Below, in pieces: positions 5,201-61,177 of a stretch of 64,000 nucleotides of DNA. The stretch covers positions 23,002,001 to 23,066,000 of the forward strand of contig OZ024765.1 in NCBI GenBank assembly GCA_964016885.1. The letters are read 5' to 3'. The notes under the pieces were generated by a model. That model ran no database searches. It saw only the letters and a program-made list of their open reading frames with translations, and was not told the DNA's origin. The DNA comes from Eledone cirrhosa. Its lineage: Eukaryota. A program made the translations under genes and the position numbers. Each line of letters opens with the position of its first letter. Position 1 is the stretch's first letter.

Positions 5201-5396
5201 TCTGGCTGTTACACCTACCTCCCTCCTGGCTGTTACCCCTACCTCCCTTCTGGCTGTTACACCTACCTCCCTTCTGGCTGTTACACCTACCTCCCTTCTG
5301 GCTGTTACACCTACCTCCCTTCTGGCTGTTACACCTACCTCCCATCTGGCTGTTACACCTACCTCCCTTCTGGCTGTTACACCTACCTCCCTTCTA
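2254..5396. repeat. 24-bp minisatellite (tggctgttacacctacctcccttc), ~130 copies, with 27-bp variants
   Basis: Direct periodicity; ends ~80 bp before the 5477 exon. Confidence 0.97.
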
Positions 5397-8089: not shown

Positions 8090-8428
8090 GTACGTCTCAC
8101 ACCTTTCTCTTATCTCTCTCTCTCTCTCTCTCTCCAGGTGTCACACCTCTCTCACTCTCTCCCCCTCACTGGATGTCACCACACATCCTTCTATTACCAA
8201 TACAGTCGTGCCCCTCCCTCCTTGAATGTATATATAATAATGTATATATGTTATACATCTGCCTGTGGGTATATATAATAAATTATGTTGATTGTGTATA
8301 TAACAGTCTTTGTTGGTAGTACAATGTATGTATATATTATATATATATCTATCAGTGGATATATATAAAAATCTGTATATAATGTTATATATATACTGTA
8401 GGTATATATAAATGTCTATGTTGTTAAA

Positions 8429-8692
8429 ATAATTGTTTCTACGTTAGGCACAAGGCCAGCAACTACCCAGTGTATTACTGGTACTTTATTTTATCGACCC
8501 CGTAAGGATGAAAGGCAAAGTTAACCTTGGCGGGATTTGAACTCAGAATGGCAAGGGCAGTAACTCTATGCGTCAAAGCATGGCGTCCGACCCTCTACCG
8601 ATACTGCCAATCAATTTGAACTATGACTGTAAAGGGCCGTAACTCTATGCTGCATGGCGTCCGACCCTCTACCGATACTGCCAATCCCCCAC
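8429..8692 (-). mobile_element. tRNA-derived SINE family B (Nin/Deu-like central domain) with a duplicated head segment
   Basis: Head ggattggcagtatcggtaga...gagttcaaatcccgcc, central ctttgcctttcatccttacggggtcgataaaataaagtacc; domain name is from recall. Confidence 0.75.
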
Positions 8693-8872
8693 CTATGTTG
8701 GTAATATAATGTATATATGTTATATATATACTGTAGGTATATATAAAATTGTTTATTGGTATTTCTATGTATCTATGTTATATATCTGTAGGTGTATATA
8801 AAGGTCTTTGTTGGTATTTCCCTGTATGTATAATGTTATATATCTCTGTAGGTGTACATATATGTATATACA

Positions 8873-11116: not shown

Positions 11117-11315
11117 CATTGCCCTATGTACTGTACATGCACTTTTTAATGAGTTGTGGTGCACCTGGGCACTGTACACAATATTTCATTATTATTATTA
11201 TTATTATATCATGACTCATACACTGTTCATTTTCCTGACATTTGTACATTATTCTATGTACTATACATGCACCTTTGATGAGTTGTAGTGCACCTGAGCA
11301 CTGTACACAATAATT

Positions 11316-11355
<40 letters not shown>

Positions 11356-11703
11356 TATATAAACAACTATTTTGTTGGTACAGTGAGTGTATAATATTAC
11401 ATATCTGTGTAGATGTATATAAATATCTTTGTTGGTGGTACAATGAGTGTATGATGTTATATATCTCTCTAGATGTATATAACGGTCTTTGTTGGTAGGC
11501 TTATGTATGTATAATTTTATATATCTGTCTATAAAAATCTGTTGGAAGTTCCATGTTTGTATAATGCTATATATCTATCTGTAGGTGTATATAAAGATCT
11601 TTGTTGGTGGTACAATGAGTATATAATGTTATATATCTACCTGTAGATGTGTGTATATATATATGTACATATATATATATATGTACATATATATATATAT
11701 GTG

Positions 11704-11759
<56 letters not shown>

Positions 11760-11874
11760 AACTATTTTGGTAGGCCCATCCATGTATGTATAATGCTATA
11801 TATCTGTCTGTAGGTGTATATAAAGATCTTTGTTGGTGGTACAATGAGTATATATGTGTATATATATGTACATA

Positions 11875-11921
<47 letters not shown>

Positions 11922-11966
11922 GGTAGGCCCATCCATGTATGTATAATGCTATATATCTGTCTGTAG

Positions 11967-12092
11967 GTGTATATAAAGATCTTTGTTGGTGGTACAATGA
12001 GTGTACATACAGCTATTAAAGCCACCATCACTCAAATGTTGAGCAGTTTCACTAAGAAACTTCAGGAATCTGAGAAAACCAAGGCACCAAGG
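11967..12092 (+). CDS. ARFGEF3: ARFGEF3/BIG3 coding exon
   Basis: ctgtag|GTG...CCAAGG|gtatgt; 126 nt, VYIKIFVGGTMSVHTAIKATITQMLSSFTKKLQESEKTKAPR (cf. BIG3 SINTAVRATLSQML). Confidence 0.85.
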
Positions 12093-16307: not shown

Positions 16308-18021
16308 CTCTTGACATCCTGTAATAATTTAATAGAAAATATCTGAAAATGGTTTTGTACTAAATGTTTATAGTATCTTTACTGGTGGACAGACTGTTGT
16401 GAATATTTACAGTATTACAGTAAAGACTTTAATATTTAATGTGATGTAGTCATAGTGTTGTTTTGTACTAAATGTTTATAGTATCTTTACTGGTGGACAG
16501 ATTGTTGTGAATATTTACAGTATTACAGTAAAGACTTTAATATTTAATGTGATGTAGTCATAGTGTTGTTTTGTACTAAATGTTTATAGTATCTTTACTG
16601 GTGGACAGATTGTTGTGAATATTTACAGTATTACAGTAAAGACTTTAATATTTAATGTGATGTAGTCATAGTGTTGTTTTGTACTAAATGTTTATAGTAT
16701 CTTTACTGGTGGACAGATTGTTGTGAATATTTACAGTATTACAGTAAAGACTTTAATATTTAATGTGATGTAGTCAGTGTTGTTTTGTACTAAATGTTTA
16801 TAGTATCTTTACTGGTGGACATATTGTTGTGAAAATTTACAGTATTACAGTAAAGACTTTAATATTTAATGTGATGTAGTCATAGTGTTGTTTTGTACTA
16901 AATGTTTATAGTATCTTTACTGGTGGACAGACTGTTGTGAATATTTACAGTATTACAGTAAAGACTTTAATATTTAATGTGATGTAGTCATAGTGTTGTT
17001 TTGTACTAAATGTTTATAGTATCTTTACTGGTGGACAGATTGTTGTGAATATTTACAGTATTACAGTAAAGACTATAATATTTAATGTGATGTAGTCATA
17101 GTGTTGTTTTGTACTAAATGTTTATAGTATCTTTACTGGTGGACAGATTGTTGTGAATATTTACAGTATTACAGTAAAGACTTTAATATTTAATGTGATG
17201 TAGTCATAGTGTTGTTTTGTACTAAATGTTTATAGTATCTTTACTGGTGGACAGATTGTTGTGAATATTTACAGTATTACAGTAAAGACTTTAATATTTA
17301 ATGTGATGTAGTCAGTGTTGTTTTGTACTAAATGTTTATAGTATCTTTACTGGTGGACATATTGTTGTGAAAATTTACAGTATTACAGTAAAGACTTTAA
17401 TATTTAATGTGATGTAGTCATAGTGTTGTTTTGTACTAAATGTTTATAGTATCTTTACTGGTGGACAGATTGTTGTGAATATTTACAGTATTACAGTAAA
17501 GACTTTAATATTTAATGTGATGTAGTCATAGTGTTGTTTTGTACTAAATGTTTATAGTATCTTTACTGGTGGACATATTGTTGTGAAAATTTACAGTATT
17601 ACAGTAAAGACTTTAATATTTAATATGATGTAGTCATAGTGTTGTTTTGTACTAAATGTTTATAGTATCTTTACTGGTGGACAGATTATTGTGAAAATTT
17701 ACAGTATTACAGTAAAGACTATAATATTTAATGTGATGTAGTCATAGTGTTGTTTTGTACTAAATGTTTATAGTATCTTTACTGGTGGATAGATTGTTGT
17801 GAATATTTACAGTATTACAGTAAAGACTTTAATATTTAATGTGATGTAGTCATAGTGTTGTTTTGTACTAAATGTTTATAGTATCTTTACTGGTAGACAG
17901 ATTGTTGTGAATATTTACAGTATTACAGTAAAGACTTTAATATTTAATGTGATATAGTCCCAGAGAAGTTTTGAATACTCAAGAATATCTTATTAATGCA
18001 TGCAGTACAGGATGTTAAGAT
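16308..18021. mobile_element. TTAA-flanked MITE-like element containing ~15 copies of a 108-bp internal tandem repeat
   Basis: ttaa|ctcttgacatcctgta ... tacaggatgttaagat|ttaa are imperfect TIRs with TTAA flanks (piggyBac-like); period 108 (16361, 16469, 16577). Confidence 0.75.
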
Positions 18022-19203: not shown

Positions 19204-20008
19204 AGACAGTATCTTTCATTAGAAATATGGTAATGAAAGGGTTAATGACATAGACTGTCTTTCATTAGAAATAAGGTAATGAAAGGGTTAATGACATAGA
19301 CAGTGTCTTACATTAGAAATATGGTAATGAAAGGGTTAATGACACAGACTGTCTTTCATTAGAAATATAGTAATGAAAGGGTTAATGACATAGACAGTGT
19401 CTTTCATTAGAAATAAGGTAATGAAAGGGTTAATGACATAGACAGTGTCTTTCATTAGAAATATTGTAATGAAAGGGTTAATGACTTAGACAGTGTCTTT
19501 CATTAGAAATATAGTAATGAAAGGGTTAATGACATAGACAGTGTCTTTCATTAGAAATAAGGTAATGAAAGGGTTAATGACATAGACAGTGTCTTTCATT
19601 AGAAATATTGTAATGAAAGGGTGAATGACATAGGCAGTGTCTTTCATTAGAAATATTGTAATGAAAGGGTTAATGACATAGGCAGTGTCTTTCATTAGAA
19701 ATAAGGTAATGAAAGGGTTAATGACATAGACAGTGTCTTTCATTAGAAATATTGTAATGAAAGGGTTAATGACTTAGACAGTGTCTTTCATTAGAAATAT
19801 AGTAATGAAAGGGTTAATGACATAGATAGTGTCTTTCATTAGAAATATGGTAATGAAAGGGTTAATGACATAGACAGTGTCTTTCATTAGAAATATGGTA
19901 ATGAAAGGGTTAATGACATAGACAGTGTCTTTCATTAGAAATATGATAATGAAAGGGTTAATGACGTAGACTGTCTTTCATTAGAAATATGGTAATGAAA
20001 GGGTTAAT
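19204..20008. repeat. 48-bp tandem array, ~17 copies, each containing aaaggg|ttaa
   Basis: Unit agacagtgtctttcattagaaatatggtaatgaaagggttaatgacat; some units are 46 bp. Confidence 0.93.
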
Positions 20009-23011: not shown

Positions 23012-26000
23012 TCATCATCATCATCATCATCGTTTAACGTCCATCTTCCATGCTTGCATGGGTTTGGACGGGAGTTTTCCCACTTGAGGCAAGAGTGGTT
23101 GTCTTGCTCGCATAGGACTGTCTGGCGGGTTTTCTACGGCTGGATGCCCTTCCTAACACCAACCACATTTACAGTGTGGGACTGGGAGGTTTTCACCGTG
23201 TTGCCTACACGGCCACATTACAGCGTGGACTGTCTGGCGGGTTTTCTACGGCTGGATGCCCTTCCTAACACCAACCACATTTACAGTGTGGAACTGGGAG
23301 GTTTTTACCGTGTTACCTACACGGCCACATTACAGCGTGGACTGTGTGTTTTTTTGTCGTGACACCTACACGACCTCATTTGTTTCGGGCTGGATGTTGT
23401 GGTACCAACATAACTTTACATTGAAAGGGCTGGTGTGGATGGGGTGGGGGTAGTGGGACGGGGGTGTATTTTTGTTAGAGGTGCCTACTGACTGTAGGTT
23501 TTGCTTTTTACTTAGGCCAGGTGGGTCTTCTCTATTACTGTGTACCACCAAAGATCTCGGTCCAGTGACATTGTCTTGGAGAAGTGTGTGAGGTCGGAAT
23601 TTATGAAATCGTGTCAGGTTTTTCTGGGTCTGCCTACTCCGTGGCTACCGTCTATTTTTATTGCCATACACTTTTTTATACAGCTGTTGTCTTTCATGCA
23701 CATCACATGACCATACCAATGTAGCCTTCTCTCGAGTAAACAACATCTGATCCCTCTTATTTCTTCTAATTTTTCCCTTAGTTCGTTTATGCTTTGCCGT
23801 TCACGTATATTACTATTACACATCCAGCGGAGCATGCAAGCTTCGTTCCTCTCCAGTCTGCGTATATCCTCTGCACACAATGCCCAGGTCTCACTGCCAT
23901 GTAACATTGCTGTTCGTATGCAGGCATCATACAGCCTGCCTTTCATTTTTAGAGAGAACCCTTTAGCGGCTAATAGAGGTATAAGCTCTCTGAACTTTTT
24001 CCATCCAGTTCTGACTCTGGCTACTGTACTTCCAGAGCACCCTCCCCCACTGCTGATTTTGTCACCCAGGTAACGGAAGGTGTCCACTATTTCCATAGAA
24101 CCATCTGTGCAATGGAATGAGCTAATATCCTGTGGGCACTTGCTGCTACTTATTGCACCAGAGCACCGGCCACATATAAAATCTATATCCTTAGTGATCC
24201 CACTACATCTTTTATGCACCCATACTTTGCATTTGGGACATAAAATGGAGTTTCTGCCTACTCCTTTCCTACACACTGAGCATGGCCATTTCCCGGATGG
24301 GACCGGTGCCCTATTTTCCTTCCTACAAACTAGAACTTTAGTCTTAGACAGGTTAATTTTAAGGACTTTTGATTCTAGGCCATGCTTCCATGTTTGGAAG
24401 TTCTTCTCTAGCTCGGCCATTGATTCAGCTATGAGCGTTAGATCATCTGCATATAGGAGTTCCCATGGGCAGCTGGTCTTGAACTCCTCTGTTATAGCCT
24501 GAAGGGCAATAATAAATAGGAGGGGGCTAAGAACGGAGCCCTGATGAACACCAACTTTTACGCTAAACTCTTCACTATATTCGTTGTTAATTCTAACCTT
24601 GCTGACTGTTTCTTTATACATGGCTTGTATAGCTTTCACAAGCCATTCATCAACACCTAGTTTTCTAAGAGCCCACCAGATAATGGAACGGTGGACTCTG
24701 TCAAAGGCTTTCTCCAAGTCGACAAAAGCTAAGTATAGGGGTTTACTTTTAGCTAGGTACTTCTCCTGTAGTTGTCGTACAATGAAAAGAGCGTCTGTGG
24801 TACTTTTACCTGACACAAACCCGAACTGCATTTCATCTAGATCAATTCGCTCTCTGATTAGTTGCGCTATTACTTTTTCTATGATCTTCATGACCTGGTC
24901 AATTAATTTAATGCCTCTATAGTTACCCCTATCTAGGGCATCTCCTTTACCCTTGTAGCAGTTAATGATGATGCTGCTACGCCAGTCCTTCGGAACAACC
25001 CCATGCTGTATGACTTGGTTTACTATGTGGGTGGCCATAGTGTGTCCCACCGTTCCAAAAGCTTTCAGCATTTCAGCCACTATTTCCGAAGGCCCAGCCG
25101 CCTTACCCGTCTTCATATCCTTGATTGCCTTACTTATTATACTACCTTCAACTAACACTCCTGGTCCCTCTATTGGATCGATGTGGGGCAGACTGTCTTT
25201 CTCCCATTTATTCTCCTCATTTAGTAGCCTCTCGTAGTAACACTTCCAAGTTACCTTCTTATCAGCGTCAGTGATGGCAAGTAGACCATCATCATTAAGG
25301 ACACACTTCTCCCTGACAATATCACGGTTTTCCTTGACACATTGCCTAGCAATCCTGAACACCTCACGTTTTTGGTCCTCGCATTGTAGAACATGCTGGA
25401 ACTTTCTTTCCTCTGCTTCCCCTCTTGCGAAGTACACTTGTCTCCTAGCTTGCCTCCTGGCCACTTGATAGTCTTCTCTACTTCCCCCATCCCGCCATAC
25501 TTTCCAAGCCTGCTTTTTGGCCTTAATTGACTCCTCCACCTTACTGTTCCACCACCACGTTACTCTCCTCCTGCCTATAGGCCTGCTCCAGCCACAGACT
25601 TCATCTGCCGCCATCAGCAGGTTTGCTTTCAGGAGATCCCACTGTTCCTCTATATTGTACGACTCTAATTGCTCTTCCTTACTGTCGAAAGCATCAAGTA
25701 ATATGCTTTTAAATTTATTACTGGCTGTGGGGTCCTTTAGCTTCCATATTTTTCTCCTGAGGATAGTCCTCTTCTGTTGTCGAGTACGTCTCGTCCTGAC
25801 TATGAGGTCGCTAATTATCAGTCTATGTTGGGAGGTGCATTCTTCATGGGGGAGGGATTTAGTGTTTACAACAGACACTCTGTCACGTCTTCTGGTAAGG
25901 ATATAATCTACCTGGCTGGTATGTTCCCCTGATCTGTAGGTGATCAGTGATTGTCTCATTTTTTGAAGTTAGTGTTTCTAGTACCAAACCCATAGCCTCT

Positions 26001-26800
26001 ATGGATTCCGTCGTAGCCGTCACAATATTGTCCAACGTGACCATTTAGGTCGCCAGCAATAATTATATAGTCACTGTCGGTTATTTGGGAGGTAGTGAGC
26101 ATCAGTATCTCATAGAATCTGTCTTTTATAACGCCAGGCTGTCCGGACTGGGGTGCTACGCAGATATTACTGTCATAGTAGTTCTATTTAGAACAAGTCT
26201 TATTTTAATTATTCTGTCATTCACTCTATTTACATCTATTATCTTATCCACCCATTTTTCTGCTAACATGATTCCTACCCCACCCATCCCATTGTCATTT
26301 CCCACCCAGAAAAGCTTATAGCATCGTTTTTTACCCACAATGAATCTAGCAGACCCGCCCCTCCACCTGGTCTCTTGAATATAACAAACATCAACCTCCT
26401 TACGTTCAAGCATTTCCACGACCTCGTTTGAGCGACCTTTTAAGGTGCCTACATTCATGGTACCAACTCTGAAGTTTTGGATTGCGTTTGGTGGGTGGGG
26501 CGCGGGGATGGGGTTGGGATTATGTTGGCCATCCGCGGCCGAAACAAAGAGGAGGAGTCCTTGCCCTTTCGTCCGGCAGCATGAGGTGAATTTGTCGTTA
26601 TCTTTGGCATTGTCACTGAGTGTCCAGATTCTTCAGACTCTCCCGAAATTCCTTAGTCCATCCATCATATCGAAAAGCCACCAGGAGAAGTGATAGCATA
26701 GGCCGCTGATTTAGGATTGGTCCAAATAATAATGGTGGAGAGTGGGGGCGGGTGGGAGGGGTATGGGGTAGTTAGCGAGGAGAAGGTTTTAAATAAAGCA
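23010..26800 (-). mobile_element. Near full-length RTE-clade LINE (subfamily A), disrupted
   Basis: APE endonuclease (GTMNVGTL, IQETRW, SQVDYIL), RT (FVDLEKAFD, GVHQGSVLSPLLF, LLYADD), C4HC3 finger, 3'UTR and (TGA)n tail; stop at 26156-26158 and a frameshift/deletion near 25960-26000; 5' end approximate. Confidence 0.93.
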
Positions 26801-31691: not shown

Positions 31692-33159
31692 TAGAATTAA
31701 CAATGAATATTGTGAAGAATTTAGTGTAAAAGTTGGTGTTCATCAGGGCTCTGTCCTTAGCCCCCTCCTACTTACTATTGCCCTTCAGGCTATAACAGAG
31801 GAGCGTCAAGACCGGCTGCCCATGGGAACTCCTATACGCAGATGATCTAACGCTCATAGCTGGATCAATGGCTGAACTAGAGAAGAAATTCCAAACATGG
31901 AAGCATGGCCTAGAATCAAAAGGCCTTAAAGTTAACTTGTCTAAGACTAAAGTTCTAGTTTGTAGAAAGGAAAATAAGGCACTGGTACCCTCAGGGAAAT
32001 TGTCTTGCTCAGTGTGTAGGAAAGGAGTAGACAGAAATTCAATTTTATGTCCCAAATGCAAAGTATGGGTACATAAAAGATGTAGTGGGATCACAGGTAA
32101 ACTATCTAAGAATGTAGACTTTATATGTGGCCGATGCTCAGGTGCAATAAGTAGCAAGTGTCCACAGGATACTAGCTCCTTCTATTGCCCAGATGGTTCT
32201 ATAGAAATAGTAGACACTTTCCATTACCTGGGTGACAAAATCAGCAGTGGTGGAGGGTGCTCTGAAAGTACAGTAGCCAGAGTCAGAACGGGATGGAAAA
32301 AGTTCAGAGAGCTTATACCACTATTGGACGCTAAAGGGTTCTCTCTAAAAATGAAAGGCAGGCTGTATGATGCCTGCATACGAACAGCAATGTTACATGG
32401 CAGTGAGACATGGGCATTGTGTGCAGAGGATATACGCAGACTAGAGAGGAACGAAGCTTGCATGCTCTGTTGCATGTGTAATAGTAATATATGTGAACGG
32501 CAAAGCATAAATGAACTAAGTGAAAAATTAGGAATAAGAGGGATCAGATGTTGTTTACTTGAGAGAAGACTATGTTGGTATGGCCACGTGATGCGCATGA
32601 AAGACGACAGCTGTATAAAAAATGCAGGGAGATCAAAATTGATGGAAGTTACGGAGTAGGTAGACCCAGAAAAACCTGGGATGATCTGATAAATTCCGAC
32701 CTTACACACTTACATCTCTCTAAGGCAATGTCACTGGACCGAGATGTTTGGCACTACGCAGTAATACAGAAGACCCGCCTTGCCTAAGTACAAAGCAAAA
32801 CCTACAGTCAGTAGGCACCTCCTAACCAAAAATACACCCCCATCCCCATCTACACCACCCCTTTCGATGTAAAGTTATGTTGGTACCACAACATCCAGTC
32901 CGAAACAAATGAGGTCGTGTAGGTGTCACAACAAAAAACACACAGTCCACGCTGTAATGTGGCCGTGTAGGCAACACAGTAAAAACCTCCCAGTCCACAC
33001 TGTAAATGTGGTTGGTGTTAGGAAGGGCATCCAGCCGTAGAAAACCTGCCAGACAGTCCTATATGAGTGAGACACGGTTCAACCAACCTTGCCACAAGTG
33101 GGACAACTCCCGTATAACCCATGCTAACATGGGAGATGGACGTTAAATGATGATGATGA

Positions 33160-34985: not shown

Positions 34986-35924
34986 CTACTGCACCAAATG
35001 ACCAGCCCTGTCCACTGTCCAGTTGGTCAAGTAGAGATTAAAATCGGCACCCCCAAAATTCTTATTTAGATTTACTCATGGTATTCTCATTAAAAACCCA
35101 TTATATACTTGTTTAGCAGTAAATTGAATTACCATCTGTCATATACTATCCCCTCTCTCCTTACTCTATTACTAATATAAATACTTCAATTTTTCTGATT
35201 TTATCCAGTTTATCCAAAATCTCTGAAGAAGTGACAACTGATTATACATTTGCTATCGAATACTTGCTAACATTATATGATTACGCAAGCAGCGATACAT
35301 AGGTATTCCGTCTGTTACAGAAACATATGTCAATACCTAATAAATTCCTTTTTTAACAAAAGCACTTTCATTTTATATTCATCCTTTCTACATTTCTCCG
35401 GAATATAATTTATACTCGTTGAGCAAACCTACACGTACGCTGTTCATCTCTAACGTAACGATATATTATCACTACATTATTGATAACCTGAAATTTTATT
35501 GTATATATATATATGTATATATATATATATGTATATATGTATGTATATATGTATATATATATATATGTATATATGTATGTATATATGTATATATATATAT
35601 GTATATATGTATGTATATATATATATGTATATATATATGTTGTTATACTTTGGGAGGGTCATGTTGCCAATTATTGGCAACATGACCCTCCCAAAGTATA
35701 ACAATATCGGTTTCAACACACAATTTCAGATAAAGAATCTTGCTAAACAAATTCAGAAACGAAATATATATATATGTATATATATATATATATGTATATA
35801 TATATGTATATATATATATATGTGAATATAGACATAGAATATTCGAGAATATTCTGTATGTTTATAATAAACATTTTGAAGACCTAATCGCTATAGAATA
35901 GAATACGTCACGTATTACAATTAG

Positions 35925-36013
35925 ATTCTCGATAAAAGCAAGGGAAGTAATCTACGCGTTTCATTCTCGTTAGAAATCATCAGGACTACATATCCAGTGC
36001 TTTTATCGAGAAT
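35925..36013 (-). ncRNA. Type I hammerhead ribozyme (copies also at 36235-36323, 36545-36633, 36855-36943)
   Basis: Reverse complement of 37221-37309. Confidence 0.85.
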
Positions 36014-37220
36014 GACACAGCTAGAGACTTATAGAATACTTAGCTGTGTACAGGAACTGGTTTGAAAGAGCGGTTGCCGGTCCGGCAGAAATTAGAAATT
36101 GGAATAAATGCTCTGAAATAGCGATATATATGTGAATATAGACATAGAATATTCGAGAATATTCTGTATGTTTATAATAAACATTTTGAAGACCTAATCG
36201 CTATAGAATAGAATACGTCACGTATTACAATTAGATTCTCGATAAAAGCAAGGGAAGTAATCTACGCGTTTCATTCTCGTTAGAAATCATCAGGACTACA
36301 TATCCAGTGCTTTTATCGAGAATGACACAGCTAGAGACTTATAGAATACTTAGCTGTGTACAGGAACTGGTTTGAAAGAGCGGTTGCCGGTCCGGCAGAA
36401 ATTAGAAATTGGAATAAATGCTCTGAAATAGCGATATATATGTGAATATAGACATAGAATATTCGAGAATATTCTGTATGTTTATAATAAACATTTTGAA
36501 GACCTAATCGCTATAGAATAGAATACGTCACGTATTACAATTAGATTCTCGATAAAAGCAAGGGAAGTAATCTACGCGTTTCATTCTCGTTAGAAATCAT
36601 CAGGACTACATATCCAGTGCTTTTATCGAGAATGACACAGCTAGAGACTTATAGAATACTTAGCTGTGTACAGGAACTGGTTTGAAAGAGCGGTTGCCGG
36701 TCCGGCAGAAATTAGAAATTGGAATAAATGCTCTGAAATAGCGATATATATGTGAATATAGACATAGAATATTCGAGAATATTCTGTATGTTTATAATAA
36801 ACATTTTGAAGACCTAATCGCTATAGAATAGAATACGTCACGTATTACAATTAGATTCTCGATAAAAGCAAGGGAAGTAATCTACGCGTTTCATTCTCGT
36901 TAGAAATCATCAGGACTACATATCCAGTGCTTTTATCGAGAATGACACAGCTAGAGACTTATAGAATACTTAGCTGTGTACAGGAACTGGTTTGAAAGAG
37001 CGGTTGCCGGTCCGGCAGAAATTAGAAATTGGAATAAATGCTCTGAAATAGCGATATATATGTGAATATAGACATAGAATATTCGAGAATATTCTGTATG
37101 TTTATAATAAACATTTTGAAGACCTAATCGCTATAGAATAGAATACGTCACGTATTACAAACGCTCTTTCAAACCAGTTCCTGTACACAGCTAAGTATTC
37201 TATAAGTCTCTAGCTGTGTC

Positions 37221-37309
37221 ATTCTCGATAAAAGCACTGGATATGTAGTCCTGATGATTTCTAACGAGAATGAAACGCGTAGATTACTTCCCTTGCTTTT
37301 ATCGAGAAT
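37221..37309 (+). ncRNA. Type I hammerhead ribozyme (copies also at 37531-37619, 37841-37929)
   Basis: Stem I gtagtc/gattac with a distal 16-bp attctcgataaaagca/tgcttttatcgagaat; CTGATGA at 37251-37257; stem II ttct/agaa; GAAAC; palindromic stem III ACGCGT; predicted cleavage after GTA at 37281. Confidence 0.88.
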
Positions 37310-38111
37310 CTAATTGTAATACGTGACGTATTCTATTCTATAGCGATTAGGTCTTCAAAATGTTTATTATAAACATACAGAATATTCTCGAATATTCTAT
37401 GTCTATATTCACATATATATCGCTATTTCAGAGCATTTATTCCAATTTCTAATTTCTGCCGGACCGGCAACCGCTCTTTCAAACCAGTTCCTGTACACAG
37501 CTAAGTATTCTATAAGTCTCTAGCTGTGTCATTCTCGATAAAAGCACTGGATATGTAGTCCTGATGATTTCTAACGAGAATGAAACGCGTAGATTACTTC
37601 CCTTGCTTTTATCGAGAATCTAATTGTAATACGTGACGTATTCTATTCTATAGCGATTAGGTCTTCAAAATGTTTATTATAAACATACAGAATATTCTCG
37701 AATATTCTATGTCTATATTCACATATATATCGCTATTTCAGAGCATTTATTCCAATTTCTAATTTCTGCCGGACCGGCAACCGCTCTTTCAAACCAGTTC
37801 CTGTACACAGCTAAGTATTCTATAAGTCTCTAGCTGTGTCATTCTCGATAAAAGCACTGGATATGTAGTCCTGATGATTTCTAACGAGAATGAAACGCGT
37901 AGATTACTTCCCTTGCTTTTATCGAGAATCTAATTGTAATACGTGACGTATTCTATTCTATAGCGATTAGGTCTTCAAAATGTTTATTATAAACATACAG
38001 AATATTCTCGAATATTCTATGTCTATATTCACATATATATCGCTATTTCAGAGCATTTATTATATATATATATGTATGTATATATATGTATATATGTATA
38101 TATATATGTAT

Positions 38112-38602: not shown

Positions 38603-38784
38603 GTTCGTATTGATTTATATTATACACAAGTTTCTGTGGAATACTCAGCCACATATGTGATTACATAGCACAAACTGTACCTGTAATTGTACCTGGTACC
38701 ATTCTCACACACACACACACGCACACACACACACACACACACACACTTACACAAACTGTACCTGTAATTGTACCTGGTACCATT

Positions 38785-38817
<33 letters not shown>

Positions 38818-38892
38818 ACACACACACACACACACACACAAACAAACACACCCATCTTCATATTGTGCAGAGGCGTATTTAGGGTATGGCAC

Positions 38893-42929: not shown

Positions 42930-43385
42930 CGTTAATTCTAACGTTTTGTAATATTACAGTAAAGACTTTAATATTTAATGTGGTGTAGTCATAGTGTGGT
43001 TTTGTACTAAATGTTTATAGTATCTTTACTAGTGGACATATTGTGAATATTTACAGTATTACAGTAAAGACTTTAATATTGAATGTGATGTAGTCATAGT
43101 GTTGTTTTGTACTAAATGTTTATAGTATCTCTACTGGTGGACATATTGTTGTGAATATTTACAGTATTACAGTAAAGACTTTAATATTGAATGTGATGTA
43201 GTCATAGTGTTGTTTTGTACTAAATGTTTATAGTATCTTTACTAGTGGACATATTGTTGTGAATATTTACAGTATTACAGTAAAGACTTTAATATTGAAT
43301 GTGATGTAGTCATAGTGTTGTTTTGTACTCCTCAAGAATGTCTTGCCAATGTAGTCTCCTGAGGTACAGGTCATTAAGAATTAAT
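42930..43385. mobile_element. 108-bp-repeat MITE-like family copy (~3.5 units)
   Basis: Same unit and a similar 3' flank (ctcaagaatgtctt...gtacagg...ttaagaattaa) to 16308-18021. Confidence 0.72.
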
Positions 43386-43696: not shown

Positions 43697-44992
43697 TAGG
43701 GTGCGGATGATATTTGTTTGCAAGGTTACTGTCTAGGAAAATATAAGACAGTAGTTTTATTTTTTAAAATATATTTATCAAACTTGGGTCAGTTTGTTTT
43801 CATGACTTGTTCTTTCAATCTCACTCGACAAACCCACCATTGGCTTTGATGACGGCCTCGGAACCAGCTACATGCCTTTGTCACTGTCCCCCGACTTAGG
43901 CCTCTAAAGACACATGTGATCCTGGCCTTCAGATCTTCTTTCGTATTGCAGCTAGATCTGTTGGTGTCTCGTTCCACTGCGCCCCACACAAAGAAGTTGA
44001 GGGGGTTGCAGTCAGGCGAGCTGGGAGGCAATATGTCAGGTGAAGTGTGGTCGAAGAAGTTCTCTGACAGCCAGGCTTGGGTCTTTCGGCTGGTATGGCA
44101 GAGCGCTGAATCTTGCTGCCACACGTACGGCCTACCTGCAGTTACCTGGTCGATCCAGGGCTTTACTACCTCGCTCAGAACGCGGATGTAGCCATCAGTG
44201 TTCAGCTTGAGGCCCTCAGGGAAGAAGTGAGGTGGCATGACGTCACCTTGACTGCTGACGACACCTAAGACCAATGTTGTCACTGGAAACTTTGTCTGCA
44301 TGACTCTGGGCACGTCTTTGGATGAGACAGCGAGCCACCTGTTGTTCTGGGAGTTGATCTTCTGGTCTTGGCAGAAGTTTTTCTCGTCGGAGAAAAAGCA
44401 CAGCATGTCTGGCTCCAGTGGGTGTTTCAATTTGTTGATCAGCTTCTTTGCGTGCTTCAGTCGCTTTTCTTGCATCGCCTTTGACAGAAATTGTCCTTTC
44501 CTCATCTTGTATGAAACGTAGCGAATGTCTTCATGTACCACCAGCCTATTGAGCTTTTCACCCACACCTTTCTCCCTTGCAATGGCACGCATCGACTTGC
44601 TAGGTTCATTGTTGATGATATCCTGAACTTCAGCGACGAACTCAGGCGTTCTGAAGGCGTCAGATCGTCGATCATGTGTTTTCCTCTCTGATGTTGCTTC
44701 GTAGTCGAATCCTGAATTTTCGAATTCCTTTCTGACCTATTCCACCATTCTCCTGCTGACGCTGAGAAAGTCTGAAATTTCCTTATTTGTCCTCCCGGCG
44801 CGGATTCCAAGAAGAACTCCGTGTCTCTGCCACAAATTTGGAGGTTCAAAATTATTCATAATCAATTATTCTGAAAATAAATAATGGAAATACAGTCACT
44901 GTTTTTATGAAGACAAGAGTGACAACGGAAGTAAAAAAAATTTGCATAAAATTAGCAGCTGAAAATTGGGAACAAATATCGTCCACACCCTA
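43697..44992 (-). mobile_element. Tc1/mariner DNA transposon, DD37D (maT)-type, defective
   Basis: TIRs agggtgcggatgatatttgtt / aacaaatatcgtccacaccct in TA context; FSDEKNF, VWQQDSA, then 37 residues to PDCNPLN (third D replaced by N); frameshifted. Confidence 0.9.
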
Positions 44993-45372: not shown

Positions 45373-45397
45373 AATGTATATATATATATATATGTGG

Positions 45398-45434
<37 letters not shown>

Positions 45435-45500
45435 AATGTATATATATATATATATATGTGGATGTATATATATATGTGGATATATATATATATATATATA

Positions 45501-47115
45501 TAACAGAGGAGTTCAAGACCGGCTGCCCATGGGAACTCCTATACGCAGATGATCTAACGCTCATAGCTGAATCAATGACCGAACTAGAGAAGAAATTCCA
45601 AACGTGGAAGCACGGCCTAGAATCAAAAGGCCTTAAAATTAACCTGTCTAAGACTAAAGTTCTAGTTTGTAGGAAAGAAAATAAGGCGGCGGTCCCATCG
45701 GGGAAATGGCCATGCTCAGTGTGTAGGAAAGGCGTAGGTAGAAACTCCATTTTATGTCCCAAATGCAAAGTATGGGTGCATAAAAGATGTAGTGGGATCA
45801 CAGGTAAGCTAACTAAGAACATAGATTTTACATGTGGCCGGTGCTCTGGTGCAATAAGTAGCAGCAAGTGCCCACAAAATACTAGCTCCTTCAACTGCGC
45901 AGAGGGTTCTATAGAAATAGTGGACAGCGTCCGTTATCTGGGTGACAAAATCAGCAGTGGGGGAGGGTGCTCTGAAAGTACAGTAGCTAGAGTCAGAACT
46001 GGATGGAAAAAGTTCAGAGAGCTTATACCACTATTAGCCGCTAGAGGGTTCTCCCTAAAAATGAAAGGCAGGTTATACGATGCCTGCATACGAACAGCAA
46101 TGCTGCATGGCAGTGAGACCTGGGCATTGTGTGCAGAGGATATACGCAGACTAGAGAGGAACGAAGCTTGCATGCTCCGCTGGATGTGCAATAGTAATAT
46201 ACGTGAACGGCAAAGCATAAACGAACTAAGGAAAAAATTAGAAATAAGAGGGATCAGATGTTGTTTACTCGAGAGAAGGCTACGTTGGTACGGTCACGTG
46301 ATGCGCATGAAAGACGACAGCTGTATAACAAAGTGCAGGGCAATAAAGATAGACGGTAGCCACGGAGTAGGCAGACCCAGAAAAACATGGGACGAGCTGA
46401 TAAATTCCGACCTCACACGCTTACACCTCTCCAAGACAATGTCACTGGACCGAGACCTTTGGCGGTACTCAGTAATAGAGAAGACCCGCCTTACCTAAAT
46501 ACAAAGTAAAAACCTACTACAGTCAGTAGGCATCTCTATCAAAACACACCCCCGTCCCACCACCCTCCACCCCACCCACACCGCCCCTTTCAATGTAAAG
46601 TTATGTTGGTCCCACAACATCCAGGCCGAAACAAATGAGATCGTGTAGGTGTCACGACAAAAACACACAGTCCACGCTGTAAATGTGGCCGTGTAGGCAA
46701 CACGGTAAAAACCTCCCAGCCCCACACTGTAAATGTGGTTGGTGTTAGGAAGGGCATCCAGCTGTAGAAAACCCGCCAGACAGTCCACGCTGTAATGTGG
46801 CCGTGTAGGCAACACGGTAAAAACCTCCCAGCCCCACACTGTAAATGTGGTTGGTGTTAGGAAGGGCATCCAGCTGTAGAAAACCCGCCAGACAGTCCAT
46901 GCTGTAATGTGGCCGTGTAGGCAACACGGTAAAAACCTCCCAGCCCCACACTGTAAATGTGGTTGGTGTTAGGAAGGGCATCCAACTGTAGAAAACCCGC
47001 CAGACAGTCCTATGCGAGCAAGACAACCACTCTTGCCTCAAGTGGGAAAACCCCCGTCCAAACCCATGCAAGCGTGGAACACGGACGCTAAACCTGATGA
47101 TGATGATGATGATGA
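45501..47115 (+). mobile_element. RTE LINE 5'-truncated copy (subfamily A) with a 112-bp 3'UTR segment in three copies
   Basis: Open frame from [18 protein letters not shown] to EKTRLT*; 3'UTR period 112 (46781, 46893); (GAT)n tail. Confidence 0.93.
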
Positions 47116-47156
47116 TATATATTATATATGTGTGTGTGGATGTATATATATATATA

Positions 47157-47855
47157 TGGTGGATAGCTTCCGGTACCTAGGAGATCAGATTAGCATGGGA
47201 GGAGGGTGTTCCGAGGCCATAGTATCTAGAATAAGGATGGGTTGGAAGAAGTTTAGGGAGCTGCTTCCTCTGTTGACGAAGAAGGGTTTCTCCCTGCGTA
47301 TGAAAGGCCGGTTGTATGATGCCTGTGTGAGGAGCGCGATGCTGCATGGTAGTGAGACATGGGCAGCTACCGCAGAAGATATGCGACGGCTGGAGAGAAA
47401 TGAGGCAAGCATGCTCCGTTGGATGTGCAGTGTCAATGTGCGTGAACGACCCAGCATGGATGTGTTGAGAGAGCAACTGTGTCTGAGAGGGATAGGATGT
47501 AGTGTACGGGAGAGGAGACTGAGGTTGTATGGACATGTGATGTGTTGAGAGAGAAACTGTGTCTGAGAGGGATAGAATGTAGTGTACGGGAGAGGAGACT
47601 GAGGTGGTATGGACATGTGATGTGCATGGAGGATGACCGATGGGTGAAGAAGTGCCAGGAAATGCCAGTTGAAGGAAGACGTGGTAGAGGTAGACCACAA
47701 AAAACATGGGCGGAGGTGGTGAGAACAGACCCCAGATCACTGAAGCTCATGGTGGAGATGACGAAGGATCGTGACGAGTGGAGAGATGCTGTGCTGAATA
47801 AGACCCGTCCCACCCTTGCAAGCAGGCAAAAGCGGACATAAAATGTTGATGATGA
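47157..47855 (+). mobile_element. RTE LINE 3' fragment (subfamily C) with an internal ~80-bp duplication
   Basis: VDSFRYLGDQI...GWKKFRELLP; duplicated LREQLCLRGIG segment; tail cccacccttgcaagcagg...(GAT)n. Confidence 0.9.
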
Positions 47856-53558: not shown

Positions 53559-53744
53559 AATAAATAAAAGTTCAGACATGTTCATATCAAAGAAGGATAT
53601 AACAATTTTGGAGATGTCGAGGAGCACAAAAGCCTGGGAACTCCTGGATTAGGTTGACCAAGTCTTAATAATATTCCTCTTTATAAAATTTATTTTTTTT
53701 CTTTCAATTCTTATTTCAAATCGTTTGTTTGGTATGTAATTCAG

Positions 53745-53905
53745 ACATGGTGACTGTATTTCCCTCCAAATCTGATGACTCCACTGTGATTGTCAACGCT
53801 GATGGTATTTATGTCACTTCCATCGCTGTCCTCTCACTTAACCTGAAGTTGTCTGTGAAGAACTTCTATAAACCAGAATTCCAGGGAAAAGTTCTCGTCA
53901 CGGAG
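53745..53905 (+). CDS. ARFGEF3: ARFGEF3/BIG3 coding exon
   Basis: attcag|ACATG...ACGGAG|gtaatc; 161 nt, DMVTVFPSKSDDSTVIVNADGIYVTSIAVLSLNLKLSVKNFYKPEFQGKVLVTE (cf. MNADSLY...LLLNLKLS). Confidence 0.85.
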
Positions 53906-54039
53906 GTAATCATATTTATATACACATCCACAAACACGCACACATGTATACACATACACCTTTGATGAGTTGTAGTGCACCTGAGCATTGTACACAATAA
54001 TTTCATTATCATTATTTGCTATTGTTATGTTTATTACAG

Positions 54040-54196
54040 GAGCAGTTTGTAGACAATGTCCTTAACAGTGGCTTGGTCGTGTTTCTGTCAACAACTTGGC
54101 TCAATGAGGTCTATAAACAGATTCTAGCAACTGACCTCCTCCACAACGCTGGATACCACTTTGATGATGAATCACCTCTTATTTCAATGCTTACAG
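54040..54196 (+). CDS. ARFGEF3: ARFGEF3/BIG3 coding exon
   Basis: ttacag|GAG...CTTACAG|gtaaac; 157 nt, EQFVDNVLNSGLVVFLSTTWLNEVYKQILATDLLHNAGYHFDDESPLISMLT (cf. PLITMLTDIDGL). Confidence 0.92.
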
Positions 54197-57100
54197 GTAA
54201 ACATTAAGACTTAACTTACAGGTAAACATTAAGACTTAACTTACAGGTAAACATTAAGACCTAACTTACAGGTAAACATTAAGACTTAACTTACAGGTAA
54301 ACATTAAGACTTAACTTACAGGTAAACATTAAGACCTAACTTACAGGTAAACATTAAGACTTAACTTACAGGTAAACATTAAGACTTAACTTACAGGTAA
54401 ACATTAAGACTTAACTTACAGGTAAACATTAAGACTTAACTTACAGGTAAACATTAAGACTTAACTTACAGGTAAACATTAAGACTTAACTTACAGGTAA
54501 ACATTAAGACTTAACTTACAGGTAAACATTAAGACTTAACTTACAGGTAAACATTAAGACCTAACTTACAGGTAAACATTAAGACTTAACTTACAGGTAA
54601 ACATTAAGACCTAACTTACAGGTAAACATTAAGACTTAACTTACAGGTAAACATTAAGACCTAACTTACAGGTAAACATTAAGACTTAACTTACAGGTAA
54701 ACATTAAGACTTAACTTACAGGTAAACATTAAGACTTAACTTACAGGTAAACATTAAGACTTAACTTACAGGTAAACATTAAGACTTAACTTACAGGTAA
54801 ACATTAAGACCTAACTTACAGGTAAACATTAAGACTTAACTTACAGGTAAACATTAAGACCTAACTTACAGGTAAACATTAAGACTTAACTTACAGGTAA
54901 ACATTAAGACCTAACTTACAGGTAAACATTAAGACTTAACTTACAGGTAAACATTAAGACTTAACTTACAGGTAAACATTAAGACTTAACTTACAGGTAA
55001 ACATTAAGACCTAACTTACAGGTAAACATTAAGACTTAACTTACAGGTAAACATTAAGACCTAACTTACAGGTAAACATTAAGACTTAACTTACAGGTAA
55101 ACATTAAGACTTAACTTACAGGTAAACATTAAGACTTAACTTACAGGTAAACATTAAGACCTAACTTACAGGTAAACATTAAGACCTAACTTACAGGTAA
55201 ACATTAAGACCTAACTTACAGGTAAACATTAAGACTTAACTTACAGGTAAACATTAAGACCTAACTTACAGGTAAACATTAAGACTTAACTTACAGGTAA
55301 ACATTAAGACTTAACTTACAGGTAAACATTAAGACTTAACTTACAGGTAAACATTAAGACTTAACTTACAGGTAAACATTAAGACTTAACTTACAGGTAA
55401 ACATTAAGACCTAACTTACAGGTAAACATTAAGACTTAACTTACAGGTAAACATTAAGACCTAACTTACAGGTAAACATTAAGACTTAACTTACAGGTAA
55501 ACATTAAGACTTAACTTACAGGTAAACATTAAGACCTAACTTACAGGTAAACATTAAGACTTAACTTACAGGTAAACATTAAGACTTAACTTACAGGTAA
55601 ACATTAAGACTTAACTTACAGGTAAACATTAAGACTTAACTTACAGGTAAACATTAAGACTTAACTTACAGGTAAACATTAAGACCTAACTTACAGGTAA
55701 ACATTAAGACCTAACTTACAGGTAAACATTAAGACTTAACTTACAGGTAAACATTAAGACTTAACTTACAGGTAAACATTAAGACTTAACTTACAGGTAA
55801 ACATTAAGACTTAACTTACAGGTAAACATTAAGACTTAACTTACAGGTAAACATTAAGACTTAACTTACAGGTAAACATTAAGACTTAACTTACAGGTAA
55901 ACATTAAGACTTAACTTACAGGTAAACATTAAGACTTAACTTACAGGTAAACATTAAGACCTAACTTACAGGTAAACATTAAGACCTAACTTACAGGTAA
56001 ACATTAAGACCTAACTTACAGGTAAACATTAAGACTTAACTTACAGGTAAACATTAAGACCTAACTTACAGGTAAACATTAAGACTTAACTTACAGGTAA
56101 ACATTAAGACTTAACTTACAGGTAAACATTAAGACTTAACTTACAGGTAAACATTAAGACTTAACTTACAGGTAAACATTAAGACTTAACTTACAGGTAA
56201 ACATTAAGACCTAACTTACAGGTAAACATTAAGACTTAACTTACAGGTAAACATTAAGACCTAACTTACAGGTAAACATTAAGACTTAACTTACAGGTAA
56301 ACATTAAGACTTAACTTACAGGTAAACATTAAGACCTAACTTACAGGTAAACATTAAGACTTAACTTACAGGTAAACATTAAGACTTAACTTACAGGTAA
56401 ACATTAAGACTTAACTTACAGGTAAACATTAAGACTTAACTTACAGGTAAACATTAAGACTTAACTTACAGGTAAACATTAAGACTTAACTTACAGGTAA
56501 ACATTAAGACTTAACTTACAGGTAAACATTAAGACTTAACTTACAGGTAAACATTAAGACTTAACTTACAGGTAAACATTAAGACTTAACTTACAGGTAA
56601 ACATTAAGACTTAACTTACAGGTAAACATTAAGACTTAACTTACAGGTAAACATTAAGACCTAACTTACAGGTAAACATTAAGACTTAACTTACAGGTAA
56701 ACATTAAGACCTAACTTACAGGTAAACATTAAGACTTAACTTACAGGTAAACATTAAGACTTAACTTACAGGTAAACATTAAGACCTAACTTACAGGTAA
56801 ACATTAAGACTTAACTTACAGGTAAACATTAAGACTTAACTTACAGGTAAACATTAAGACTTAACTTACAGGTAAACATTAAGACTTAACTTACAGGTAA
56901 ACATTAAGACCTAACTTACAGGTAAACATTAAGACTTAACTTACAGGTAAACATTAAGACTTAACTTACAGGTAAACATTAAGACTTAACTTACAGGTAA
57001 ACATTAAGACTTAACTTACAGGTAAACATTAAGACCTAACTTACAGGTAAACATTAAGACTTAACTTACAGGTAAACATTAAGACTTAACTTACAGGTAA

Positions 57101-59359
57101 ACATTAAGACTTAACTTACAGGTAAACATTAAGACTTAACTTACAGGTAAACATTAAGACTTAACTTACAGGTAAACATTAAGACCTAACTTACAGGTAA
57201 ACATTAAGACTTAACTTACAGGTAAACATTAAGACTTAACTTACAGGTAAACATTAAGACTTAACTTACAGGTAAACATTAAGACTTAACTTACAGGTAA
57301 ACATTAAGACTTAACTTACAGGTAAACATTAAGACTTAACTTACAGGTAAACATTAAGACTTAACTTACAGGTAAACATTAAGACTTAACTTACAGGTAA
57401 ACATTAAGACCTAACTTACAGGTAAACATTAAGACTTAACTTACAGGTAAACATTAAGACTTAACTTACAGGTAAACATTAAGACTTAACTTACAGGTAA
57501 ACATTAAGACTTAACTTACAGGTAAACATTAAGACTTAACTTACAGGTAAACATTAAGACTTAACTTACAGGTAAACATTAAGACTTAACTTACAGGTAA
57601 ACATTAAGACCTAACTTACAGGTAAACATTAAGACTTAACTTACAGGTAAACATTAAGACTTAACTTACAGGTAAACATTAAGACTTAACTTACAGGTAA
57701 ACATTAAGACCTAACTTACAGGTAAACATTAAGACTTAACTTACAGGTAAACATTAAGACTTAACTTACAGGTAAACATTAAGACTTAACTTACAGGTAA
57801 ACATTAAGACCTAACTTACAGGTAAACATTAAGACTTAACTTACAGGTAAACATTAAGACTTAACTTACAGGTAAACATTAAGACCTAACTTACAGGTAA
57901 ACATTAAGACCTAACTTACAGGTAAACATTAAGACTTAACTTACAGGTAAACATTAAGACTTAACTTACAGGTAAACATTAAGACTTAACTTACAGGTAA
58001 ACATTAAGACCTAACTTACAGGTAAACATTAAGACTTAACTTACAGGTAAACATTAAGACTTAACTTACAGGTAAACATTAAGACTTAACTTACAGGTAA
58101 ACATTAAGACTTAACTTACAGGTAAACATTAAGACTTAACTTACAGGTAAACATTAAGACCTAACTTACAGGTAAACATTAAGACTTAACTTACAGGTAA
58201 ACATTAAGACTTAACTTACAGGTAAACATTAAGACTTAACTTACAGGTAAACATTAAGACTTAACTTACAGGTAAACATTAAGACTTAACTTACAGGTAA
58301 ACATTAAGACTTAACTTACAGGTAAACATTAAGACTTAACTTACAGGTAAACATTAAGACCTAACTTACAGGTAAACATTAAGACTTAACTTACAGGTAA
58401 ACATTAAGACTTAACTTACAGGTAAACATTAAGACTTAACTTACAGGTAAACATTAAGACCTAACTTACAGGTAAACATTAAGACTTAACTTACAGGTAA
58501 ACATTAAGACTTAACTTACAGGTAAACATTAAGACTTAACTTACAGGTAAACATTAAGACTTAACTTACAGGTAAACATTAAGACTTAACTTACAGGTAA
58601 ACATTAAGACTTAACTTACAGGTAAACATTAAGACCTAACTTACAGGTAAACATTAAGACTTAACTTACAGGTAAACATTAAGACTTAACTTACAGGTAA
58701 ACATTAAGACTTAACTTACAGGTAAACATTAAGACTTAACTTACAGGTAAACATTAAGACTTAACTTACAGGTAAACATTAAGACCTAACTTACAGGTAA
58801 ACATTAAGACCTAACTTACAGGTAAACATTAAGACTTAACTTACAGGTAAACATTAAGACCTAACTTACAGGTAAACATTAAGACTTAACTTACAGGTAA
58901 ACATTAAGACTTAACTTACAGGTAAACATTAAGACTTAACTTACAGGTAAACATTAAGACTTAACTTACAGGTAAACATTAAGACCTAACTTACAGGTAA
59001 ACATTAAGACTTAACTTTCAGGTAAACATTAAGACTTAACTTTCAGGTAAACATTAAGACTTAACTTTCAGGTAAACATTAAGACTTAACTTTCAGATAA
59101 ACATTAAGACTTAACTTTCAGATAAACATTAAGACTTAACTTTCAGGTAAACATTAAGACTTAACTTACAGGTAAACATTAAGACTTAACTTACAGGTAA
59201 ACATTAAGACTTAACTTACAGGTAAACATTAAGACTTAACTTTCAGGTAAACATTAAGACTTAACTTTCAGGTAAACATTAAGACTTAACTTACAGTTAA
59301 ACATTAAGACTTAACTTAGAGGTAAACATTAAGACCTAACTTAGAGGTAAACATTAAGA
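54190..59359 (+). repeat. 25-bp tandem array, ~207 copies, spanning the exon/intron junction (cttacag|gtaaacattaagac(t/c)taa)
   Basis: The first unit overlaps the last 7 nt of exon 54040-54196 and its donor. Confidence 0.97.
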
Positions 59360-59399
59360 TTTACAGGACATTGACTTAAGTTACCACTAATTGTTACAA

Positions 59400-59775
59400 T
59401 GATGCAGTCATAATGCAGTTTTGTACTCTTTAAGAATGTTTAGCTGATTTGGTTTCATGGGGCTTGTTAATTCAAATGTTTGTAGTATCTTTATTAATGG
59501 ACAGGTTACTGTAACTATTTGCTGTGTTAAATTAAAGACTTTAATATTTAATGTGATGTAGTCATAGTGTTGTTTTGTAGTAAATGTTTATAGTATCTTT
59601 ACTGGTGGACAGATTGTTGTGAAAATTCACAGTATTACAGTAAAGACTTTAATATTTAATATGATGTAGTCATAGTGTTGTTTTGTACTCTTCTAGATTG
59701 TCTAGCTGATGTGGTTTCATGGGGTTTGTTAGTTCAAATGTTTGTAGTATCTTTACTAATGGACATATTGTTTTC
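59400..59775. repeat. Degenerate 108-bp-repeat family copy
   Basis: Contains taaagactttaatatttaat(g/a)tgatgtagtcatagtgttgttttgta units. Confidence 0.75.
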
Positions 59776-59824
59776 CTGTGTTCTTTACAAGTTATCTCCT
59801 TTCTCTCCTCACCTTCCTCCTCAG

Positions 59825-60031
59825 ATATCGATGGTTTGGACAGTCACGAACTGTGTGGACAAATTCTGATGGACGCTCGTCATACCTGCAATACACTGCT
59901 GTCTGATGATGATGATGATGATGATGATGAGGAGGTGCTGGAGGTGGCAGAGAGCAGGGTGCGGAGGGGAGGAGATGGTGGACATTCGGGCAGAAGACAT
60001 ATACGACCAAGTAAAGAGGCAGTAATTGCAG
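59825..60031 (+). CDS. ARFGEF3: ARFGEF3/BIG3 coding exon
   Basis: cctcag|ATATC...TTGCAG|gtacgt; 207 nt, DIDGLDSHELCGQILMD...KEAVIA, joining MLT to give the conserved MLTDIDGL. Confidence 0.9.
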
Positions 60032-60087
60032 GTACGTGGCATCATCATCACCACCATTACAATCAGTAATTCCACCTTAACTCATCT

Positions 60088-60732
60088 TTAACTCTTAACA
60101 TTCTGTAATGATTTAGCAGAAAATATCTAAAAACAAGTTTGTAAATTCAAATGTTTATAGTATCTTTACTGGTAGACAGATTGTTGTGAATATTTACAGT
60201 ATTACAGTAAAGACTTTAATATTTAATGTGATGTAGTCATAGTGTTGTTTTGTACTAAATGTTTATAGTATCTTTACTGGTGGACAGACTGTTGTGAAAA
60301 TTTACAGTATTACAGTAAAGACTTTAATATTTAATGTGATGTAGTCATAGTGTTGTTTTGTACTAAATGTTTATAGTATCTTTACTGGTGGACAGATTGT
60401 TGTGAATATTTACAGTATTACAGTAAAGACTTTAATATTTAATGTGATGTAGTCATAGTGTTGTTTTGTACTAAATGTTTATAGTATCTTTACTGGTGGA
60501 CAGACTGTTGTGAAAATTTACAGTATTACAGTAAAGACTTTAATATTTAATGTGATGTAGTCATAGTGTTGTTTTGTACTAAATGTTTATAGTATCTTTA
60601 CTAGTGGACATATTGTTGTGAATATTTACAGTATTACAGTAAAGACTTTAATATTTAAGGTGATGTAGTCATAGTGTTGTTTTGTATTTCTCAAGAATGT
60701 CTTATTGATGTGGTACAGAACTCTAATAGTTA
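60088..60732. mobile_element. 108-bp-repeat MITE-like family copy (~5 units)
   Basis: 5' flank ttaactcttaacattctgtaat matches the 16304 end; same unit; similar 3' flank. Confidence 0.75.
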
Positions 60733-60747
60733 GACACTCTCCGACAG

Positions 60748-60966
60748 GTAAAAGACTGGCCAAGCGAATCCTCTCCACCTGTTGGGATGGTCTGATTGAT
60801 GTTCTTGCTGTTCTGCTGAATGGGAAGAGTTCCTGTGGTATAACCAGTAGCCTTGCCCTAATGCTTGGCACCGAAGGAGCAAGGGAGGAGAGCCTGAAGG
60901 CCCGAGATGCTATATGTCAGAGTTTAACTGGTTTACAGAAGGCTGCCAAACTATGTTGCATTCTGG
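60748..60966 (+). CDS. ARFGEF3: ARFGEF3/BIG3 coding exon (last in window)
   Basis: cgacag|GTAAA...TCTGG|gtaagt; 219 nt, GKRLAKRILSTCWDGLIDVLAVLLNGKSSCGITSSLALMLGTEGAREESLKARDAICQSLTGLQKAAKLCCILG (cf. RDAICMSLDGLRKAARLSCALG). Confidence 0.94.
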
Positions 60967-61177
60967 GTAAGTTATTACATCACATTTCTCGCCCCGACCC
61001 CACCCCTCCTTTTTTTGATACCAAACTAACCCCTGAAACTTCCTACTGGGTCAAAACTGGGGTTGATTTAATCAACTTTCCCCTCTCCCAAAATTGCTGG
61101 CCTTGTGCCTATATAAGAAACCATTATATTATTATTTTATTATATTATTATTTTATTATATTATTATATTATTTATA

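Follow-up and report, generated by a model that had tools for sequence, protein, structure and literature searches.

The donor of a coding exon in the BIG3/ARFGEF3 gene of the octopod Eledone cirrhosa lies in the first unit of a 25-bp minisatellite of 207 units (54190–59363), which repeats the exon/intron junction through most of the following intron. Coordinates refer to the window, the whole 64,000-nt stretch of DNA analyzed; gene and array are both on its forward strand. The array is probably a near-neutral minisatellite spanning this donor, with splicing from the first of its copies. On the features tested, it is a boundary-spanning minisatellite of the type described for human F7 and ABCA7 and for the “mirages” of amphioxus.

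The part of the BIG3/ARFGEF3 orthologue within the window comprises 16 exons (5477–60966), mapped by tblastn and splice-site inspection. The frame obtained by joining them is 919 codons long and without a stop; aligned with BIG3 of Octopus bimaculoides, it is identical at 712 of 862 residues. The exon preceding the array is the fourteenth (54040–54196, 157 nt, coding donor after 54196). Its donor is of middling strength, scoring 7.1, ninth from the bottom of the gene's 16. The host intron (54197–59824, 5628 nt, GT–AG) ends at exon 15 (59825–60031, 207 nt, a multiple of three), whose acceptor has pyrimidines at 16 of 17 positions. Joining the donor after 54196 to 59825 yields conserved protein sequence: the exon 14–exon 15 junction shows no gap relative to O. 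bimaculoides BIG3, and is collinear with three molluscan homologues. The name given to the gene rests on homologues. Of 219 candidates in a protein search with the exon at 60750–60965, nine matched, and those that carry a name are from molluscs; the best match (P0001) has the Pfam domains DCB, Sec7, and HDS and clusters with O. bimaculoides BIG3. Pfam searches with four single exons returned no families, and an Rfam search over 53600–61000 no matches. The acceptor of the last mapped exon (60741–60753) is itself an AG|GT, and a possible dual-specific site.

Tandem Repeats Finder reports the array with a period of 25, 207.0 copies, and 98% matches. Unit 1 begins 7 nt inside exon 14 and extends 18 nt into the intron, and thus spans the authentic donor of a real exon, as identified by homology and by a spliced contig described below. 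Read in this frame, the array comprises 149 common units, 47 with a one-base change, and 11 others. The two main types are irregularly interspersed; the 11 rarer variants are all within the last 14 units (59015–59363), a polar decay. The AG|GT is retained in 204 of the 207 units (the G is lost in two, the second G in one), and the full 15-nt junction in 196. Since AG precedes GT at eight of the 16 donors of the host gene, duplication of this junction is enough to account for the AG|GT in each unit. In all, the array accounts for 5167 of the 5628 bases of the intron (92%). The unit has no further occurrence elsewhere in the 64,000-nt window, and the 75 bases 5′ of 54190 are unlike it (6–8 of 25 matches). 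At the other edge, the 24 nt at 59361–59384 align to the unit with two small gaps, as a decayed extra copy; none of 502 control 60-mers scores as high. Such decay matches the ordinary repeat turnover described for amphioxus mirages (PMC3087553).

The initial annotation of this locus is borne out by these results in its observations, and in part of its interpretation. It had described some 207 copies of a 25-bp unit starting from the donor of an exon at 54040–54196, filling about 92% of an intron with its acceptor at 59825; a splice motif decaying only in the distal units; an immediate stop after any later donor (below); and an origin as an amplified exon/intron junction, all of which are supported. 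A TTACAGG microhomology noted at the end of the array is present as sequence, but is actually the first part of the decayed unit at 59361–59384.

Use of any donor but the first would have a predictable result, an in-frame stop codon (54205–54207 in the first unit). For each of the five later donors tested (2, 3, 4, 10, and 207), translation continues as Gly-Lys-His-stop, at about residue 815 of about 2100. Evidence on which donor is used comes from public sequencing runs. Four of 23 such runs were chosen for alignment to 53600–54275, none of the 23 being on record as RNA. In run X4, however, an 847-nt contig (record 9, depth 11.9) joins the upstream coding exon (53745–53905) directly to exon 14, skipping the 134-nt GT..AG intron between them; because this intron is absent, the contig appears to derive from spliced RNA. 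It matches 54038–54196 without mismatch, and continues with 108 letters unlike the window sequence. X4 depth is zero over 54198–54275. If joined at 59825, a tail of this length would bring the end of the contig to the 3-bp repeat at 59904–59930, which fits use of that acceptor. In this one contig of modest depth, from a sample that may carry a different allele, the first donor (54196) is in use. No X4 contig covers the array, a weak negative, as contigs drop rare forms and minor splice forms would be invisible in this run.

The other aligned runs have less bearing on splicing. Run X1, from the same organism, has a summed depth of 191–423 over the array bins as against 3–16 for its eight listed contigs, as would fit a real multi-copy repeat; the figure gives no copy number, however, and X1 may be the source sample itself. 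X5, from another organism, covers the upstream exon with 31 other letters and four gaps over 53697–53950. In X5 and in X6, from a further organism, the array is uncovered, but exon 14 is likewise uncovered, so that these holes prove nothing. No run record spans the array.

Arrays of this kind have precedents. One is intron 18 of human ABCA7, where a 25-bp VNTR of about 12–427 units lies at the exon 18 donor (PMC5954066); the unit length and copy number of the BIG3 array are therefore within the known range. In both genes the 25-bp unit directly adjoins the exon and includes its donor, but the ABCA7 unit has the GT as its start and a C-rich setting, whereas that of BIG3 includes seven exonic bases and the full AG|GT and lies in AT-rich sequence. 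Use of the second ABCA7 donor retains one unit and leads to a premature stop, to an extent constant across array lengths; NMD there had no linear relation to array length, skipping of exon 19 increased 3.2-fold with the length of the VNTR, and the forms bearing a stop became more abundant under cycloheximide (PMC5954066). Length variation and an effect on splicing are thus demonstrated for ABCA7; for the BIG3 array both are hypothetical.

Another is the 37-bp VNTR in IVS7 of human F7 (5–9 units), whose first unit spans the exon/intron boundary (PMC1557585). In F7 minigenes with 1 to 12 units, in three cell lines, the sole donor used was the most upstream working one. BIG3 resembles F7 in having a boundary-spanning first unit, a series of identical pseudo-donors after it, and the first donor in use; it differs in being a molluscan rather than a mammalian gene, in having 207 units, and in that each unit also ends in an acceptor-like AG. 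The 6-16, CBS, lamin B2, and PDGF genes are listed alongside F7, with up to about 25 units (PMC1557585), and later donors are used to some degree in 6-16 and CBS (PMC1557585) and in ABCA7 (PMC5954066), a point against the near-neutral reading. The need to choose among some 200 identical donors, the puzzle implied by the initial annotation, is not new in kind after F7 and ABCA7.

Among invertebrates, the mirages of the amphioxus Adh3 and globin genes are tandem duplications at both types of exon boundary that leave splicing undisturbed (PMC3087553). Like these, BIG3 is an invertebrate gene with both donor- and acceptor-side cases (one of each), and has edge units that are less homogenized; the globin mirages differ in having units of 150–160 bp in 3–6 copies, and somatic instability is reported at Adh3. 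No cephalopod case of such an array was found in the literature surveyed by title and the start of the abstract, a survey too thin to claim a first.

A chance tandem duplication of a 25-bp seed over the exon/intron junction likely began the BIG3 array, and slippage or unequal exchange would then have enlarged it, keeping its middle uniform as its far end decayed. Exon definition and the part played by NMD are background, applied to BIG3 by analogy. If the gene behaves as F7 does, the donor committed to splicing would be the one closest to the upstream acceptor, also the first to be transcribed, and the remaining copies would be mostly silent decoys; adherence of the spliceosome to the first donor is the likely reason why the array is tolerated. 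By analogy with ABCA7, any small leak to donor 2 would yield transcripts that stop at about residue 815 and are cleared by NMD.

Whether chance alone would place a repeat across a donor was examined with a rough model. Tandem repeats occupy 30,983 of the 64,000 bases of the window (48%), including 26 merged arrays with units of at least 20 bp and lengths of at least 150. Dropping 28 repeat seeds on the collapsed sequence gives an expectation of 1.0 spanning a donor and 2.0 spanning any splice site; two of the 32 splice sites, one donor and one acceptor, have copies elsewhere. With two expected and two seen, boundary-spanning repeats are about as common as repeat density predicts. For units of 60 bp or less (n = 12), however, only 0.17 donor-spanning arrays are expected per window, which counts against the chance reading.

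The acceptor among these two belongs to the exon at 11967–12092. This acceptor, with the first ~37 nt of the exon, has been copied into the upstream intron (8259–8860 and 11400–12002), giving four copies at no more than three mismatches in 20 and as many as 12 that match more loosely. At 11814, the copy shows no difference along 40 intronic and 36 exonic bases; it is 153 nt upstream of the real exon and in frame with it. By homology, the last acceptor copy is the coding one. These copies are an acceptor-side mirage in the same BIG3 gene.

Other repeats in the window lie close to exons or recur among the introns of the gene. The arrays at 2255–5395, 19204–20008, 38669–38836, 42952–43329, and 60149–60686 start or end 36–82 nt from an exon, filling introns up to their splice signals. 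One 108-bp unit is found in tandem arrays of four BIG3 introns (16352–17959, 42952–43329, 59474–59687, and 60149–60686), the third of which is in the 3′ part of the exon 14–15 intron. At 35814–38061 are two adjoining 310-bp arrays differing in orientation or register, with units 99–100% identical and the same 59-codon frame on both strands. Within the 134-nt intron before exon 14, a segment of ~70 bp (53945–54016; similar sequence at 11124–11372) belongs to an interspersed element of very high copy number, its summed contig depth lying between the hundreds of thousands and the millions across three organisms; it is likely a retroposon end. Open frames at 526–1727, 23617–26632, 31796–32784, 43792–44736, and 45374–47838 are presumably pieces of retrotransposon reverse transcriptase/endonuclease and a Tc1/mariner-like transposase.

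If the array is not near-neutral, it might be a length-dependent dosage element, with long alleles lowering the level of intact BIG3 mRNA either through later donors and NMD or through skipping of exon 15. The first route would draw on the stop found after all five later donors tested, and on the middling strength of the exon 14 donor. For the second, exon 15 is of suitable length: its skipping, as with the downstream exon in ABCA7, would delete 69 residues in frame, and both exon skipping with VNTR length and stop-bearing forms raised by cycloheximide are on record for that gene (PMC5954066). Retention of one ABCA7 unit was nevertheless constant across lengths (PMC5954066), the choice of site in F7 was unaffected by unit number (PMC1557585), and the array is uncovered by X4 contigs, although this last is a weak point. 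A dosage function is on balance unlikely. Its copy-number-dependent NMD form, suggested in the initial annotation, is unsupported, because F7 keeps to the first donor at 1–12 units, second-donor use in ABCA7 is constant across lengths and NMD there has no linear relation to length, and the X4 contig leaves at donor 1.

A different possibility is that the units are used as acceptors as well. The array would then be a working ladder of about 200 dual-specific or recursive sites: joining donor 1 to the AG of any later unit would restore an identical junction, removing the intron in steps of 25 n bases and leaving no mark in the mRNA, and an intermediate would look like a pre-mRNA containing fewer units. 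The AG|GT needed for this is present in 204 of 207 units, although an AG before GT is found at half the gene's donors in any case. On an acceptor weight matrix built from the gene's own 16 acceptors, a small set, the AG of the common unit scores 7.4, above 10 of the 16 leave-one-out scores of the real sites (range 2.0–11.4) and above 98% of 1555 decoy AGs. This score runs against the near-neutral reading; it also makes acceptor function less doubtful than the initial annotation had held, although the low pyrimidine content cited there stands: 9 of 17 positions, the bottom of the real range (9–16) and level with the weakest real acceptors.

The branch-like motif is similarly two-sided. A strict branch-like pentamer is found at −8, in the same unit, and at −33, in the previous one. 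The first is outside the 10–60 nt range used for branch points in PMC10156609; the second is at a distance also seen in real acceptors, four of 16 of which have such a pentamer (at −20, −26, −33, and −33), but two other AGs come between it and the AG of the unit. Among 30,004 non-repeat intronic 25-mers, 3.9% contain the pentamer and 35% its loose form. The best precedent for recursive splicing here, by analogy, would be human UBC, a tandem array of dual-specific sites that is spliced stochastically (PMC10809524). Both are tandem repeats with an AG|GT in each unit, but the UBC units are coding monomers with dual use demonstrated, whereas those of BIG3 are intronic and out of frame, and their dual use is putative. 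Lariat pipelines discard repeats (PMC10156609), so that recursive splicing within arrays would be missed. On balance, a recursive ladder is improbable.

The array might also be real but inflated in length or mis-assembled. Its copy number is that of the assembly, with no run record spanning it. The irregular interspersion of the two unit types and the clustering of the rarer variants at one end are not what this explanation would favor, nor is the elevated summed depth of X1 over the array bins, with the provisos given above. Such an error would be very surprising.

Two further readings were rejected. Birth of the intron by tandem AG|GT duplication, under the Rogers or DSS expansion model of intron gain, does not agree with its length, which is not a multiple of 25, or with its separate acceptor, 461 nt past the array. 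Masking of the later donors by RNA structure was considered because of the folding stability of the array (z = −2.9 relative to dinucleotide shuffles). An equal stability is reached, however, by 23 of 150 periodic controls, the behavior is shared by six other arrays, and donor 1 (0.26–0.45) is not more accessible than the later donors (0.36–0.73). In a metagenome scan with 454 candidates, the single locus obtained matched at 43% along 30 residues, within an uninterrupted frame, and was put down to chance.

As a near-neutral minisatellite, the BIG3 array adds a large case from a mollusc to a known type of repeat, and suggests that choice of the first donor still holds with about 200 identical competitors, and outside mammals and chordates. 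It would matter more if its units act as acceptors, or if allele length tunes BIG3. Both are directly testable, because the 47 one-base variants, scattered irregularly along the array, amount to an internal barcode, from which nascent long reads could reveal the sites in use, one unit at a time. Should the units prove to be a recursive ladder, the array would provide a natural ruler of splice-site choice, and would represent a kind of recursive splicing that is discarded by present pipelines.
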